Shown here: piece after piece, positions 6,353 to 49,999 of the stretch
Position numbering within the stretch: position 1 is the stretch's first letter
How the letters are laid out: each line of letters begins with the position of its first letter
From: Hormiphora californensis
Taxonomy: Eukaryota > Animalia > Ctenophora
Reading direction: 5' to 3'
DNA: 64,000 nt
Assembly (NCBI GenBank): GCA_020137815.1
Contig: CM035351.1
Coordinates: forward strand, 8,680,001 to 8,744,000
Program-made: the position numbers and the translations under genes
Notes under the pieces: generated by a model
What the model was told of the DNA's origin: nothing
Database searches by the model: none
The model's input: the letters and a program-made list of their open reading frames with translations, nothing else

Positions 6353-7814
6353 CACGGCGTGCCCGAGGGTAGTTTAACATTTGTTTGAGTGCACACCTCC
6401 AATTCCGGTTGTAACTGGTCGGGAAGACCTCCCTGAAGGTTGTGGCGGTGCGGGAAAAATAGGGTAGACCTGCTGCGGCTTCAGAAAATTGAGAAAAAGA
6501 TAGCTATCTTTTTTTTCACTTTGAAAATAAGACGTTTTTTATTAAAAGATCCTTGATCAGTGAGGTACGGTTGTCCCCTACCTATCTTTTGACGTAGAAT
6601 CGAATGCCGTTGAAGTCAAATCTCTAAAATGTTGGCAAAATGGAGAAAATCACGTTTTTAGGTGTTTTTTGGTGAAAAAAGCGTTCAAACTGGTAGTAGA
6701 TGATGGGATAGAGTCCTAAAAATATCATAAATCGATTTTTTGGGTCTTTTTCGTTCTAGGAACAGAGTTTCATGAAAACCTGGTACAACGCCTATTCTCC
6801 GTTTGCTTTCAAAGAAGGTGAATATTGCTCTAATTTAGCCAATTTTGAAGAAAAGGCGTCCAAAATGATACCAGTTGACAGGATAGAGTCCCAAAAACGT
6901 GAAAATCATCAATTTTAGGCATTTTATACCCTAGAAACAAATGGACATGGTGGTCGAATGATATTTTTTATCTCGGTAGGCCTCTGAAGTATGTGGAAAT
7001 AGCCACAATGTAGAGATTGTGGTAAATTAATGTGAATAAACGTTTACCAAACCCACTTTAGCACCTGCTAAGTTGAAGAGTGGCTCTTGCATAATCCAGA
7101 AGCCCACTAAAGTGGGTTTGGTAAACGTTTATTCACATTAATTTACCACAATCTCTACATTGTGGCTATTTCCACATACTTCAGAGGCCTACCGAGATAA
7201 AAATATCATTCGACCACCATGTCCATTTGTTTCTAGGGTATAAAATGCCTAAAATTGATGATTTTCACGTTTTTGGGACTCTATCCTGTCAACTGGTATC
7301 ATTTTGGACGCCTTTTCTTCAAAATTGGCTAAATTAGAGCAATATTCACCTTCTTTGAAAGCAAACGGAGAATAGGCGTTGTACCAGGTTTTCATGAAAC
7401 TCTGTTCCTAGAACGAAAAAGACCCAAAAAATCGATTTATGATATTTTTGGGACTCTATCCCATCATCTACTACCAGTTTGAACGCTTTTTTCACCAAAA
7501 AACACCTAAAAACGTGATTTTCTCCATTTTGCCAACATTTTAGAGATTTGACTTCAACGGCATTCGATTCTACGTCAAAAGATAGGTGGGGGACAACCGT
7601 ATCTCACTGATCAAGGATCTTTTAATAAAAAACGTCTTATTTTCAAAGTGAAAAAAAAGATAGCTATCTTTTTCTCAATTTTCTGAAGCCGCAGCAGGTC
7701 TACCCTATTTTTCCCGCACCGCCACGACCTTCAGGGAGGTCTTCCCGACCAGTTACAACCGGAATTGGAAGTGTGCACTCAAACAAATGTTAAACTACCC
7801 TCGGGCACGCCGTG
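6353..7814. mobile_element. Non-autonomous fold-back DNA transposon, Chapaev/CMC-like
   Basis: Near-perfect inverted arms 6353-7061 and 7107-7814 around a 45-bp spacer. Termini CACGGCGT...ACGCCGTG. 4-bp TSD CTTA at 6349-6352 and 7815-7818. Confidence 0.9.
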
Positions 7815-12004: not shown

Positions 12005-30623
<18,619 letters not shown>

Positions 30624-35984: not shown

Positions 35985-36487
35985 AAATGTCAAGGCCTAA
36001 CCCCAACCCAAACCGCAACCCTAACCCTAACCCTACTTTAGCCCTAACCCTAAAAAACCGGGCGCCGTTACGATCTGGGTGTTTGGAGGCCTGTTTAAAG
36101 TCGAATTTTTTATTTAAGCGACAGGCCGCCGCGCATTCAAAGAGGTCGCGCGGCGTCGTATTTGCGCGTGATATTCGAGATCGAGTTCCTGTAAAGTCGG
36201 ATTTTTTGAAACTGTCACCCCCCTGGGTATTTTCAAATTTCGTAAATGACCATAAATCCGGTTCCTGACGAGATAGAGACTTGAAATTTGGAGGTTACGA
36301 AGATCTTGCTAAGTTCTTCCGAACCTCCAAATTTCAAGTCTCTATCTTATCAGGAACCGGAGATATGGCAAATTTTGTTATTTCAGGGGGGTGACAGTTT
36401 CAAAAAATCCGACTTTACTACAGGCTGTAGTGGGAGACACTAGCGTGGTACGCGCAAAAAAATGCGCGCCACATACCTAAAATAACG
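35985..36487. mobile_element. Composite non-autonomous repeat: (CCCTAA)-like block, GC-rich block, 230-bp fold-back MITE (36191-36418), terminal block
   Basis: TIR GTAAAGTCGGATTTTTTGAAACTGTCACCCCC and its reverse complement. The blocks recur at 44329-45200. Confidence 0.7.
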
Positions 36488-36802
36488 GACTGAAGTTGCA
36501 GCCCTTCGGCCCTGCTCGCTGGGCTCTGCAGTATTCATCCCACTCGATAAATATAGAACCGGGGCCTGCTTACGGGAGTTTTAAACCGCCACACCCCCTG
36601 ACTATGGCTGACACTCCTGACTCCTAGCCCTGGCCCCCGCCGGCCGCCCGGAAGCGCCGAGCCGGAGGCCCAGCGCCGTCCCTGTTTAAAATCCCCCTTG
36701 TTTGCGTTACAAGTCATAGCCCCACCCTGAAAAGATAGTGAATTTAAAAATAGGGACAGAATGACTATAATTGAAGGAAGCAATCGATTGAGGAATGAGG
36801 AT

Positions 36803-36846
36803 GAGTTTCAAACTTTTCAACACTACTTTAAACAAATTAATTTGAG
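36803..36846 (+). other. Genomic copy of a spliced-leader (SL) exon at the 5' end of a retrocopy
   Basis: GAGTTTCAAACTTTTCAACACTACTTTAAACAAATTAATTTGAG matches, from memory, the Pleurobrachia/Hormiphora SL. It is followed by TTTCAG rather than a GT donor, so it is not an SL RNA gene. Confidence 0.75.
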
Positions 36847-36890
36847 TTTCAGCAAATGTCTATGTAAGAGCCCAGGAGGGCAGCAAGAAA

Positions 36891-37869
36891 ATGACAAGCT
36901 CCGACGATGAAATGGATATACGGATCTACCTGCGGGAAACAGACGTTGAAGAGGAAGATATTCGATACTGTCAAGAACAAACGGTGGAGTGGGTAAGAGA
37001 GATATTAACCCTAACCGGTGGGTTCGGTGAAGTTGACCCACGCCTAGTGCAGTACGGACAACATGCAGAGGACGTATGGAATGATCTGAAAGTTCCCTCC
37101 AGGAACAAACTCAATGCTCTGAACAAGCCAGTGCTTTTAGACCTTGTGGAGGAGGCATGCCGTATTCTTATGGAACATACCTTCCCAGTTACAGAACAGT
37201 TGTTAACAGTGGGTTACGAAACCTTGAAGATAAACCAGCTGGAGAAGGAGCTCAAGAAGGAGCTCACGAAGCGAAGAGCTAATAAAAACCCAGAGAGATC
37301 TGGTAGCTGCACAGGAGGAGCTGCTAAAAATGCAGAGACAGTTACTCGAAAAGAGAGAAACTGAAATCACCGCTGTTCAGACAACGGCACAGCAGGAACT
37401 GAAGAGTTTTGCATCTGTTCTGGAGAAAGAATGTGCCACTGCCCTGGCTCCAAAGAAGATACAGTCGGCAATCGTTGCAGCTTCGGAGGACCGTGGGTGT
37501 AACATCATCATCCATGGCCTGGAAGAGAGTGCTGAGCTTGAAACTCAACTAAAGTCTCTTTTTACTGAGCTTGAAGAGGCTCCGAAAATGAAATCTGTGG
37601 AGCGCTTGGGAAAGCAGGCCTCATTTGCAAGACCTGTGAAAGTTGTGCTGAGGAGCAGAGAAGCTCAAATATCGATCCTGTCAAAGAAATGCCTGTTAAA
37701 AGGGACTGATAAGTTCGAAAAAGTTTTTATTTCTCCCGATAGAACTGAGGAAGAACGGAAAGAACGGAAGCAGCTGGTAGTTGAGCTGAGGGAGAAAATA
37801 AAGCGGTCCCCTGGAACCCACCACATAATCCGTGGAAAGAGGGTGGTAGAAGCACCAAGGGACGCTTGA
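36891..37869 (+). CDS. LINE ORF1-like protein (coiled coil + RRM + C-terminal domain), ~325 aa with one frameshift near 37270
   Basis: Motifs EDRGCNIIIHGLEE, VERLGK...RPVKVVL and KVFISPDRTEEERKERKQL are typical of ORF1p RRM/CTD. Heptad-rich ELIKTQRDLVAAQEELLKMQRQLLE follows once the frame is corrected. Confidence 0.8.
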
Positions 37870-38075
37870 ACATTCATACAAACTAGTTCTGAACTCTAAT
37901 CTAATGATCTAGTAGAGTAAAACCGCTTTTGAAAGCAGGAAGATATCCGTAAAGTTGTTTCTTTTATTAGTGTTATCTTACCAATGTATGCTATAAAGCG
38001 GTATATTAAATGTTAATTGATGATGATTGATGATGATGATGATGAATGGTAACACAAAACTATTGAGTGGGATAT

Positions 38076-38423
38076 GTGAACCATAATAAAGTTCAAGAGC
38101 TCCCGCCTCCCAATAGTGCACCACATCCAGAAGAGACCACATCCAAGAGAGCACCACATCCGGAAGAGACCACTCCAAGAGTGTACCACATCCAAGAGAG
38201 CTCCCGATCCACTATCCAGAAGATACCACGTGCAGAGGATACCATGTACAGAAGATATCCGCGGTGTTGTATTTGTGCATGTAATATCTTCTGTGTGTGG
38301 TATCCCCTGTCATGTGGGTGGTCTGAGACCACTGGTCTCTACTGGATGGGGTGTTCTCCAGGTCCTGGTGCGCTCTAGGACCTGGTGCGCTCTTGGACGC
38401 TCTTGAACTTTGTTATGGTTCAC
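38076..38423. mobile_element. MITE with 25-bp TIRs and internal ACCACATCCAAGAGAG-type tandem repeats
   Basis: GTGAACCATAATAAAGTTCAAGAGC / GCTCTTGAACTTTGTTATGGTTCAC, flanked by TAT on both sides. Confidence 0.75.
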
Positions 38424-38722
38424 TATCAAGTGCATAATTTACAACATTGTGAATAATTTATTTGTGATGTCCAGAGGCGGCTCTGGCAGGTGGTGATGCC
38501 ATGACTCATTATATTTTTGGATATCTTGGTTAACTTGGAATCATATTTTAAAATTGTTCCAGCAAGAGCCTCCGATCATGTAGGCTTCTATAATTGTGGG
38601 AGTCTTTTGAACTTATTTTGTTTTACGGATCGCTATTCCACTCAGGTGGACCTTGAAGACAGAATTGTACCTTTTATTGTTGCATTAAACCCCTTTTCTA
38701 AATACCTAAAATACCCTCTTAC

Positions 38723-44328: not shown

Positions 44329-45201
44329 GTCCATTTTTTTTCAACTGTTCACCCCCCAAAGTCGTGCGCGGAATTGTTTTGCGCGTTTATCACATGTTAA
44401 CGTGTAGCGCGCGCAGCGTAAATTAAAATATCGCACGCGCAAGAGTTGAGGGGTGAACAGTTGAATAAAAATGGACTTTAAAGTCGGATTTTTTGAAGTT
44501 GTCACCCCAAAATGACCGCGCATGTGAAATTTATCAATTTTGACGCGCACACCACACGTTAACATGTGATGTGACGCGCAAAAACATTCCGCGCACGAAA
44601 AGGGGGGTGACAACTTCAAAAAATCCGACTTTACTTTCGGGCAGGTCACTCGCCAGACGCAGCAAGTACAAACAAACAAACAAACCTAAAATAACAGGTG
44701 TGTGGCGCGCATTTTTTTGCGCGTACCACGCTAGTGTCTCCCACTACTGGCAATCTTAAGACTTGAACCCGAAAGCGTTGGAAAGATAATTTTAAGACCT
44801 TTCCAACGCAACCAAAATCAATTCTTTATCTAATCAGGAACCGGAGATATGAGCGAAAAGGTTTCTCGAATTGTCACGCGCAAATACAACGCCGCGCGAC
44901 TTCTTTGAATGCGCGGCGGCCTGTCGCTTAAATTAAAAATTCAACTTTACAGGTGCACGCTGCCAAAAAAGTTGATTCACTAAAATGGCTCTAACCGCCA
45001 AACCATTCAACCGTTTTGGCTGATTCAAAGTTTATATGGTAGGGAATGTCAAGGCCTAACCCCAACCCAAACCCCAACCCTAACCCTAACCCTACTTTAG
45101 CCCTAACCCTAAAAAACCGTTTGTCAGCACTCCCAAAACACCCAGATTTTAACGCTGCCCTAAAAAACCGTTTGTCAGCACTCACGAAACACCCAGATTT
45201 T
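44329..45201. mobile_element. Cluster of small fold-back modules related to 35985-36487
   Basis: Adjacent hairpin units at 44329-44477 and 44479-44634. Inverted copies of blocks from 36095-36180 and 36428-36478. Direct copy of the CCCTAA block at 45045-45119. Confidence 0.7.
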
Positions 45202-48295: not shown

Positions 48296-48467
48296 TAACA
48301 TATAACCATGATTTTCAATGACCAGGTATTTAAATTGTTGCGTGATAGTATCCATTTTTATTACTTGCAGGAGTTGTACTTCTAAAACACATGGTTTGTT
48401 AAACTTAGATAATCTAATTCTATAAATTTACATATATATTCACAACACTCTACATCAATTCCCCGCT

Positions 48468-49287
48468 CACTCTCGCCTCTCGGACCCGTCGTGCAGTCTG
48501 GGGCTCTTCGGGATGTTTTGACATTCCTTTTGGTGAGTAGGATTGTGTGTTGCGTCCTCGTTGAGAAGATATCGATGAAGCTTGCGAGGCTCGATCAAAG
48601 CTGCCTCAGCAATCTGTTTTGTATCGTAGAATGCTCTCAGGTTGATGCCGGTCCGCGACAGAGCCTCTGTTGTGCTGGAATTGGTAGACCTCTGTTGGTT
48701 CCAGACAAGATTGTATCTGGTCAGTGCCTTCCCCGCGATGCTATTGGCCCCGAATGAAGACCCAGGCTGGGCAGAAACAGGTCCAGTAGGAGGGGGTCCA
48801 GCGGGAGGTCCGATGGGCGGGGCAGAGGGTCCGGGAGGTCCGATAGGCGGGGCAGGTGGTCCAGCAGGTCCAGCGGGGTCCGATGGGCGGGGCAGAGGGT
48901 CAGCTGGGGGTCCGATAGCGGGGCAGGTGGTCCAGAGGTCCAGCGGAGGTCCGATGGGCGGGCAGAGGGGTCCAGCGGGAGGTCCGATAGGCGGGGAGGT
49001 GGTCCAGCAGGTCCAGCGGGAGGTCCGATGGGCGGGGCAGAGGGTCCAGCGGGAGGTCCGGTAGGCGGGCAGGGGGTCAGCAGGTCCGGCATGGGTCCGT
49101 TAGGTGCAGCAGCGGGTACAGTAGGAGGTGTAGGTCCAGCCAGGGGGTCCGGTAGGAGTGACTGAGTGGGTAGCACAGGGTGTGCAGAGAGTACTGCAGG
49201 ATGACTGTCCCGTCGGTTTAAAGGTGAGGTTGTCCAGGAGGGTCTGTGGGCAGAGAGTGCATTCGCCGAAGGTAGAAGAAGACTCAT
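48468..49287 (-). CDS. Possible proline/glycine-rich repetitive protein (GPPAGPSAPPI repeats), frameshifted
   Basis: ATG at 49287, GC-rich repeat at 48780-49080, then a stop-free unique frame (GANSIAGKALTRYNLVWNQQ...HDGSERRE*) after a frame change. No recognisable domain. Confidence 0.35.
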
Positions 49288-49999
49288 GATGTTGTTTGTA
49301 AAGGATTGGGATAATTATAGTTCACGCACATGGTTAATTTATAGTATAGAGTCACTAGGGATCGCCTCACCGTTTTAGCGTGTTCTATTGATGATGTGGT
49401 TATATGAGACGTGGGTATGCGAGACATGACTAGGACTGATCGTGGCAGGTCATATCGCCGATTAAGCAGATGCAGCCGATTAGCGATCGCTGGCCGATTA
49501 AGCAGATCCATGGCCGATTAAAGCAGATCACATGGCCGATTATGGCCGGAGAGAAAAAGAGAGAGAGAGGAGAGAGAGAGAGAGATAGGGTGAGAGAGGG
49601 GGAGAGAAGTAAGTAGAGTGATTGGAGATAGAGGTAGAGATAGAGATAAGAGTTGAGGTAGAGAAGGGTGGCGGCTCTGTCAGGGAGATGCAGAGCCCAC
49701 CCGAGGGCAGGCAAAAAGACGCGCCTAACTAAAGGCCAGACGAGCGCACATGCGACGACGAGCGAGAACTGACCCTAGCCGGGACGAGAGAGACTACGCA
49801 GACGATGCGCGGCGAGGTGAGACGTAAGACCGGCGGAATAAGAAGAGAGCAAAGCGAGCGAGTGAGACGGTCAAGATGGAGGAGAGAAGAGGAGGAGGGG
49901 AAGGAGGCAGGAGAGAGACAGGGAGAGAAAAGAGAGAGAGAGAGAGAGAGAGAGAAGAGAGAGAGAGATAAGACCACGAAGAGAGACGAGAGAAAGACG

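Follow-up and report, generated by a model that had tools for sequence, protein, structure and literature searches.

A LINE ORF1 element family of ctenophores headed by the host spliced leader, probably retrotransposed from trans-spliced RNA and possibly dependent on the leader for its 5' end

The unit at positions 36803-38045 of the window, by which we mean the whole 64-kb stretch of Hormiphora californensis DNA analysed here, represents a young copy of a LINE-ORF1 element which is present in several copies and carries the spliced leader (SL) of its host at the 5' end. From the sequences of the unit and its relatives we propose, with good confidence, that the family has been retrotransposed repeatedly from trans-spliced RNA and that a partner LINE acted as the copier. 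We also put forward, as a tentative reading, that the family might constitute a promoter-less ctenophore lineage, which would use the host SL as its 5' end, would be re-trans-spliced and would switch between leader types of the host.

The organisation of the unit is summarised in Table 1 and agrees with the layout given in a preliminary description of this DNA, namely a 44-nt leader, a short UTR, an intronless ORF1-like gene, a 3' UTR and a (GAT)n tail. The encoded ORF1p comprises a helical N-terminal part, a coiled coil, an RRM and a C-terminal domain, and in the window copy the gene has to be read in two frames. The GATGA duplication at the two ends of the unit is ambiguous, with a possible length of 0-5 bp and the first two leader bases inside the overlap; as it matches the tail repeat, it is an expected product of target-primed reverse transcription. 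Judging from its sequence, the conserved end of the 3' UTR is likely the region recognised by the reverse transcriptase (RT). A stem in the 3' UTR folded no better than shuffled sequences (z -0.9 and -0.8) in the two sequences compared, between which no covariation was seen. The preliminary description had also stated that the unit lacks an RT and an endonuclease, and this stands, as a tblastn search with a full LINE ORF2 as query found no similarity to either anywhere in the 64-kb window. Between ORF1 and the tail of the unit there is no ORF2 and no coding room for an RT or a restriction-like endonuclease. A MITE-like inverted-repeat element at 38071-38427, with arms of about 100 nt that are 72% alike and a high depth, starts 25 nt past the tail.

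Table 1. Features of the leader-capped unit, with positions given as those of the window.
Feature	Position	Strand	Remarks
Possible 5' target-site duplication, GATGA	36800..36804	+	same 5-mer at 38041-38045
Spliced-leader exon sequence (leader A)	36803..36846	+	no GT donor after it
5' UTR, 44 nt	36847..36890	+	TTTCAG hexamer at 36847-36852
Upstream ORF of 3 codons, inside the 5' UTR	36856-36867	+	
LINE ORF1p gene	36891..37869	+	ATG 36891, stop 37869; frameshifted in the window copy
7-nt insertion within a short tandem duplication, source of the frameshift	about 37256..37262	+	
3' UTR, 149 nt	37870..38018	+	last ~100 nt conserved with L001
(GAT)n tandem tail, (GAT)3-T-(GAT)5-GA	38019..38045	+	possible 3' target-site duplication in the last 5 nt

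The reading of the unit had been staked beforehand on the leader being the ctenophore SL, and its 44 nt are indeed identical, at 44 of 44 positions, to the H. californensis leader as printed in the available part of PMC8527503. According to the same text, 718 copies of the leader are present in the Hormiphora genome and the leader is found on 56% of the Iso-Seq reads. No other 14-mer of the leader occurs in the window. An SL RNA gene would show a GT donor and an intron with an Sm site right after the exon; the leader is instead followed by TTTCAG in the window and by TTTTAG in L002, a family member found in a metagenome, and the window sequence is therefore not an intact SL RNA gene. Variants of the ctenophore SL were reportedly described by Derelle et al. 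in 2010. An Rfam search gave no match above chance, and a relic of a second leader within TTTCAG was considered and rejected, as the similarity extends over only 5 nt. In viral and prokaryote contigs, neither the leader nor a family member was found. Contigs of run X18, which we guess to be RNA, bear the leader and leave the element body uncovered, which is no evidence of silence.

Both the predicted fold and sequence similarity indicate that the gene is a LINE ORF1, as had been suggested from the open reading frame. When an AlphaFold model of the relative P0003 (mean pLDDT 78) was used in Foldseek, ranks 1-9 were all human L1 ORF1p (E 6e-5 to 6e-4), and its best match in VIA was the central domain of ORF1p (Z 11.9, rmsd 2.2, 88 aligned residues), compared with 9.1 for the best RRM that is not an ORF1. 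The family profile also matched, at 98.9% in hhalign, ORF1 of L004, a complete APE-RT LINE with a PHD-ORF1, an endonuclease and an RT. The RRM-CTD part of the family shares 38% identity with ORF1 of L004, and the PHD finger is absent from the family. We take ORF2 of L004 to be CR1-like by its motifs, and short tandem 3' tails occur in elements of the L2 group as well. ORF1 of the family probably belongs to the CR1/L2 group, the element itself having no RT by which its clade could be fixed. Pfam returned only coiled-coil noise for ORF1, and a sequence search of the PDB gave no meaningful match. With the C-terminal half as query, 25 relatives were found, all of those with a named source being from Pleurobrachia bachei; similarly, the nearest Atlas clusters are mostly from Ctenophora where the phylum is known. 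A metagenome scan yielded nine loci out of 80 candidate stretches, that is, two family members (L001 and L002) and seven distant matches, and in five of these seven an endonuclease-like ORF starts at the end of ORF1. In P0016, an unrelated N-terminal part is joined to the C-terminus of ORF1, as expected of a 5'-truncated copy.

The element had been expected to be multicopy, and several lines of read data agree with this. In three DNA-labelled runs, X1 and X3 from one sample and X5 from a second, contigs cover the whole element body. Three contigs of X1 with 0-1 mismatches have a depth of 260-303 compared with 52-93 for the flank contigs, i.e. up to several times the flank, and near-identical contigs of X3 have a depth of 1109-1371 compared with 232-787, whereby depth does not equal copy number in either run. 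At a single position, up to 11 (X1), 23 (X3) and 18 (X5) contigs carry another base, and as this exceeds two alleles, there must be several close copies plus more distant ones. One X1 contig starts at 36845, but this start was not accepted as a second kind of 5' end, because a variant located 30 nt downstream would break the contig likewise. A frameshift had been noted near 37270; it is present, but its site is slightly upstream, in a 7-nt insertion at about 37256-37262. The insertion is absent from the listed contigs of X1, X3 and X5 and also from L001 and L002, so that the frameshift either is found in the window copy alone or results from an assembly error, the reading frame being intact at this site in the other close copies. 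The dN/dS comparison that had been suggested for ORF1 was run between the window, L001 and L002 by codon counting and gave values of about 0.16-0.18, with dS at 1.5-2.1 and thus near saturation (window versus L001, 0.155 over 316 codons; window versus L002, 0.184 over 231 codons; L001 versus L002, 0.168 over 239 codons). By this measure, ORF1 is under purifying selection.

If the RNA had been trans-spliced and then reverse transcribed to full length, relatives should start with the leader after unrelated flanks, and this is what was observed. In L002, 42 of the 44 leader bases are present and all 42 are identical, and after the hexamer a related UTR follows (46 nt compared with 44 nt in the window, 35 identities). 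In ORF1, on the other hand, about 66% of the synonymous sites differ between the two copies (pS 0.66), and their upstream flanks match at 10 of 50 positions, the flank of L002 being AT-rich and unrelated. That the leader is unchanged despite the diverged ORF1 and UTR suggests that it has either been refreshed from the host or is under extreme constraint. Traces of a leader are also found in proteins. The N-terminus of P. bachei P0025 consists of 7 unrelated residues followed by 15 residues of translated leader A and UTR start, and the leader match has a score of 72 compared with 35 for the best of 30 shuffle sets. At the leader position of P. bachei P0019 and of P0173/P0182 from ENA, which were counted once, the peptide FQTFINYNVKLFIE is found. 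This peptide resembles leader A at its beginning and in its approximate length and would allow an identical end, and on this basis it probably represents a second Pleurobrachia spliced leader, which we refer to as leader B. When unrelated proteins were searched for leader B, nothing but the query came back, and with one candidate the search is uninformative.

The position of P0019 in the ORF1 tree bears on how the two leaders are distributed. It groups with the window in one clade (95/95), and the translation of its UTR resembles that of the window's UTR, yet it carries leader B. Mapped onto the tree, leaders A and B require two changes, and a single change suffices in 0% and 2% of 200 bootstrap trees; in an AU test, one single-change tree was not rejected (p 0.083). 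A further AU test, in which P0019 and P0173 were grouped alone (p 2e-7), imposes too strict a constraint and was discounted as support. All five members with a readable junction (the window, L002, P0025, P0019 and P0173) have a leader-like sequence, although these cases are partly selected, as the window was chosen for its leader and extensions of proteins need an open frame. The distant relative P0068 has an extension of 45 residues without a leader-like peptide. Overall, the ORF1 tree contains at least six well-supported clades, with several divergent subfamilies within P. bachei alone.

With regard to the ORF1-only state, the preliminary description is supported by the window unit and by L001, where the 3' UTR seen in the window unit (78% over 98 nt) comes directly after an intact ORF1 of 340 aa and is followed by a GAT tail; the short form is thus present in two subfamilies that are dS 1.5 apart. 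It may not hold for the whole family, since in L002 the same frame is open for 35 codons past the ORF1 stop, up to the end of the contig (L002:1151-1258). Only the first few bases after the stop are common to L002 and L001, and the conserved 3' UTR is absent from the remaining 108 nt. In a post hoc test, 2% of shuffles contained an ATG-started frame like that of L002, and 16% contained an open frame of any kind. L002 could represent a member with two ORFs, leader-capped and with the start of an ORF2, or a copy that has lost its end. The downstream peptide of L002 had no usable match in the Atlas, and no fused ORF1-ORF2 protein was found among 7990 longer candidates, which is a weak test. With EukProt dropped and up to 15 members listed per cluster, 33 of the 38 family proteins of at least 300 aa among the members listed lie on contigs of at most 1.65 kb (median 1.31 kb); this tally fits an ORF1-only form weakly, such assemblies being short anyway. 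When the 3' UTR was compared with the nine metagenome loci, only L001 matched, and no partner LINE was found among them.

The remainder of the window contains a number of further repeats and genes. Two related copies of a repeat that contains CCTAAC telomere-like units as well as internal inverted repeats, and whose depth is very high, are located at 35990-36560 and 44476-45119. Four tandem units of about 690 nt at 18363-20957 are 98-99% identical over 300 nt and each has an open frame of 160-187 aa, the first unit being without a Pfam match. Two fold-back-like elements with near-perfect inverted repeats lie at 6353-7814 (arms of 616 nt at 99%) and 12411-13764 (arms of 416 nt at 97%). On the minus strand, a kinase exon (29210-29668) and an RCC1-like exon (14558-15079) are probably parts of one NEK-type gene (14558-29668), and an intronless ORF for a membrane protein of 328 aa is nested between them on the plus strand (25888-26874). 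GC-rich tandem repeats at 48467-49314 contain long proline/glycine-rich open frames on both strands.

Based on these observations, we propose the following life cycle. The RNA of the element would be SL-trans-spliced just before the 5' UTR, and ORF1p would be made from it. The RT of a CR1/L2-type LINE would recognise the conserved 3' UTR and the (GAT)n tail, and the short RNA would be copied to full length, leader included, by target-primed reverse transcription. In the next step, a host read-through transcript of the new copy would be re-trans-spliced at the leader's own terminal AG, whereby the old leader would be swapped for a fresh one (A or B) and the same RNA would be regenerated. The junction at the last base of the leader, the unrelated flanks, the fresh leader and the probable swap point to trans-splicing followed by full-length copying. 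Template switching onto the SL RNA was rejected as the main route, as the junction coincides with the final base of the leader in the two DNA examples and, apparently, in the proteins as well.

That the whole cycle operates, with leader-capped copies acting as parents without a promoter of their own, seems possible to us, but we would not rely on it. It had been suggested that the integrated leader and the TTTCAG behind it would allow repeated trans-splicing and so restore the 5' end. This works only via the GAG with which the leader itself ends; splicing at TTTCAG would delete 6 nt, and the same 5' end would not be restored. A GAG acceptor is normally weaker than CAG and is usually outcompeted by it. 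With a weak GAG and TTTCAG 6 nt downstream, one would expect the hexamer to erode, which counts against the cycle; it is kept in both the window and L002. In favour of the cycle, the lineage is old and branched and ORF1p would package the capped, translated RNA, so that capped copies able to act as parents should have a selective advantage.

Leader-capped retrocopies might instead be dead ends, derived from masters whose promoter is located in an outron ending at an AG just before the 5' UTR; such masters would spread by unspliced RNA or by DNA duplication, while most of their RNA would receive leader A or B. Fresh leaders, the swap between A and B and the kept hexamer could then be explained without special splicing, and the extension of P0068 would be the non-leader sequence expected. 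Furthermore, about 30% of TE Iso-Seq reads in Hydra bear an SL, according to the available part of PMC12220107, and ordinary TE transcripts are thus trans-spliced. Nevertheless, we regard such masters as rather unlikely, since none of the five members with a readable junction bears an outron, since at least six ORF1 clades and a dS of 1.5-2 between three members mean that the masters would need renewal, and since the translated RNA, which ORF1p would package, would lose the promoter through trans-splicing. In Ascaris, the SL exon has an internal promoter role, and one might also speculate that the integrated leader serves as an internal promoter or start-site element similar to the head of a SINE, with no re-splicing and rare swaps. 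The unchanged leader in L002 and the kept hexamer would be accounted for, and a promoter role has been proposed for the retroposed DinoSL (PMC6050394, in the part available); two different leaders at one junction would by itself be left unexplained, and we consider a promoter role improbable as the whole explanation.

Fresh leaders and swaps between A and B would likewise result if the element, like NeSL, CRE and SLACS, targeted the exon/intron boundary of SL RNA genes, in which case the leader would be target DNA. A GTAA 3 nt past the tail, and an Sm-like word (38455) with a hairpin beyond the element at 38071-38427, could be remnants of such a target, although both were noted post hoc and are each at about the 2% chance level. 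Folding of the segment past the tail was not better than that of shuffled sequences (z -0.8 and -1.7) and left the Sm-like word base-paired, and the GATGA duplication lies outside the leader. In addition, the upstream flanks of the window and L002 are unrelated (10 of 50 matches), and so are the residues that precede the leader in P0019 and P0025. In X1, the depth of the bins 36656-36762 (upstream) and 38475-38581 (downstream) is close to that of single-copy sequence, and an X5 contig spans 38397-38621 without a break. Taken together, insertion into SL RNA genes appears quite improbable. We give least weight to the idea of ordinary processed retrocopies of a domesticated host ORF1-like gene, which is very improbable even though ORF1 is under purifying selection and SL-bearing retrogenes are common in dinoflagellates, as stated in the available part of PMC6050394: the tails of the window unit and L001 are (GAT)n and not poly(A), several copies are present in one genome, P. 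bachei has divergent subfamilies, and the protein has an ORF1p fold.

LINE derivatives that encode only ORF1 are known from several clades, namely HAL1 (L1 clade), Ag-Sponge (CR1 clade) and HeT-A (Jockey clade) (PMC5786205, PMC5753468, both in the parts available). Like these, the multicopy element described here codes for ORF1p alone and has a 3' end of LINE type, and it would need the RT of a partner. Judged by the clade of the ORF1 relatives found, Ag-Sponge is the nearest known element in these sources. Whereas HAL1, Ag-Sponge and HeT-A have 5' and 3' parts from a parent LINE according to these texts, the window element has the host SL as its 5' end, which is apparently renewed. It resembles the SL-tagged retrogenes of dinoflagellates in that an intronless genomic copy starts with the SL and would be recycled through RNA; as described in the available part of PMC6050394, those retrogenes carry host genes as cargo and relic leaders in tandem stacks, whereas here a transposon protein under selection is carried and each of the two DNA examples has one leader only. 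The ORF1p fold, the (GAT)n tail and the several subfamilies argue against an ordinary host gene as its parent. In Schistosoma mansoni, 6 of 32 SL-containing gene models are transposable or retrotransposable elements, and the authors suggested that such elements may be trans-spliced and then retro-transcribed (PMC5832876, part available). As in Hydra (PMC12220107) and S. mansoni, the RNA of the element would use the SL machinery of the host; neither a defined family with the SL as genomic 5' end nor an ORF1-only element is described in the available parts of these two reports. The element further resembles SINEs, including SINEU, in having a head derived from a small RNA and a LINE-type tail, and is unlike SINEs, as presented in the available part of PMC5786205, in being protein-coding and in having its junction exactly at the end of the SL exon, where splicing would place it.

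NeSL-1, CRE, SLACS and CZAR are autonomous RLE-type LINEs inserted in SL gene arrays, and in these, too, LINE sequence adjoins SL sequence. The window unit differs from them in having neither RT nor RLE, unrelated flanks and no conserved SL intron after it. A description of a leader-capped ORF1-only family of ctenophores was not found among the open-access papers searched, and the available parts of PMC7986045, PMC3795323, PMC12460157 and PMC2566580 contain nothing on such a family.

The RNA of a LINE must carry its own means of transcription, either an internal promoter or a ribozyme that acts on host read-through. Trans-splicing should destroy the means located at the 5' end, and a persistent leader-capped lineage, if true, would be a further solution to this problem. 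Such a lineage would also make it testable whether an integrated SL acts as an acceptor or as a promoter, which is open for the dinoflagellate retrogenes in the available part of PMC6050394. If our reading is true, part of the 718 leader copies in the Hormiphora genome would be retro-insertions and not SL RNA genes. For annotation, this means that the genomic leader copies of ctenophores, which are taken as leader loci in the available part of PMC8527503, may include many retro-insertions.
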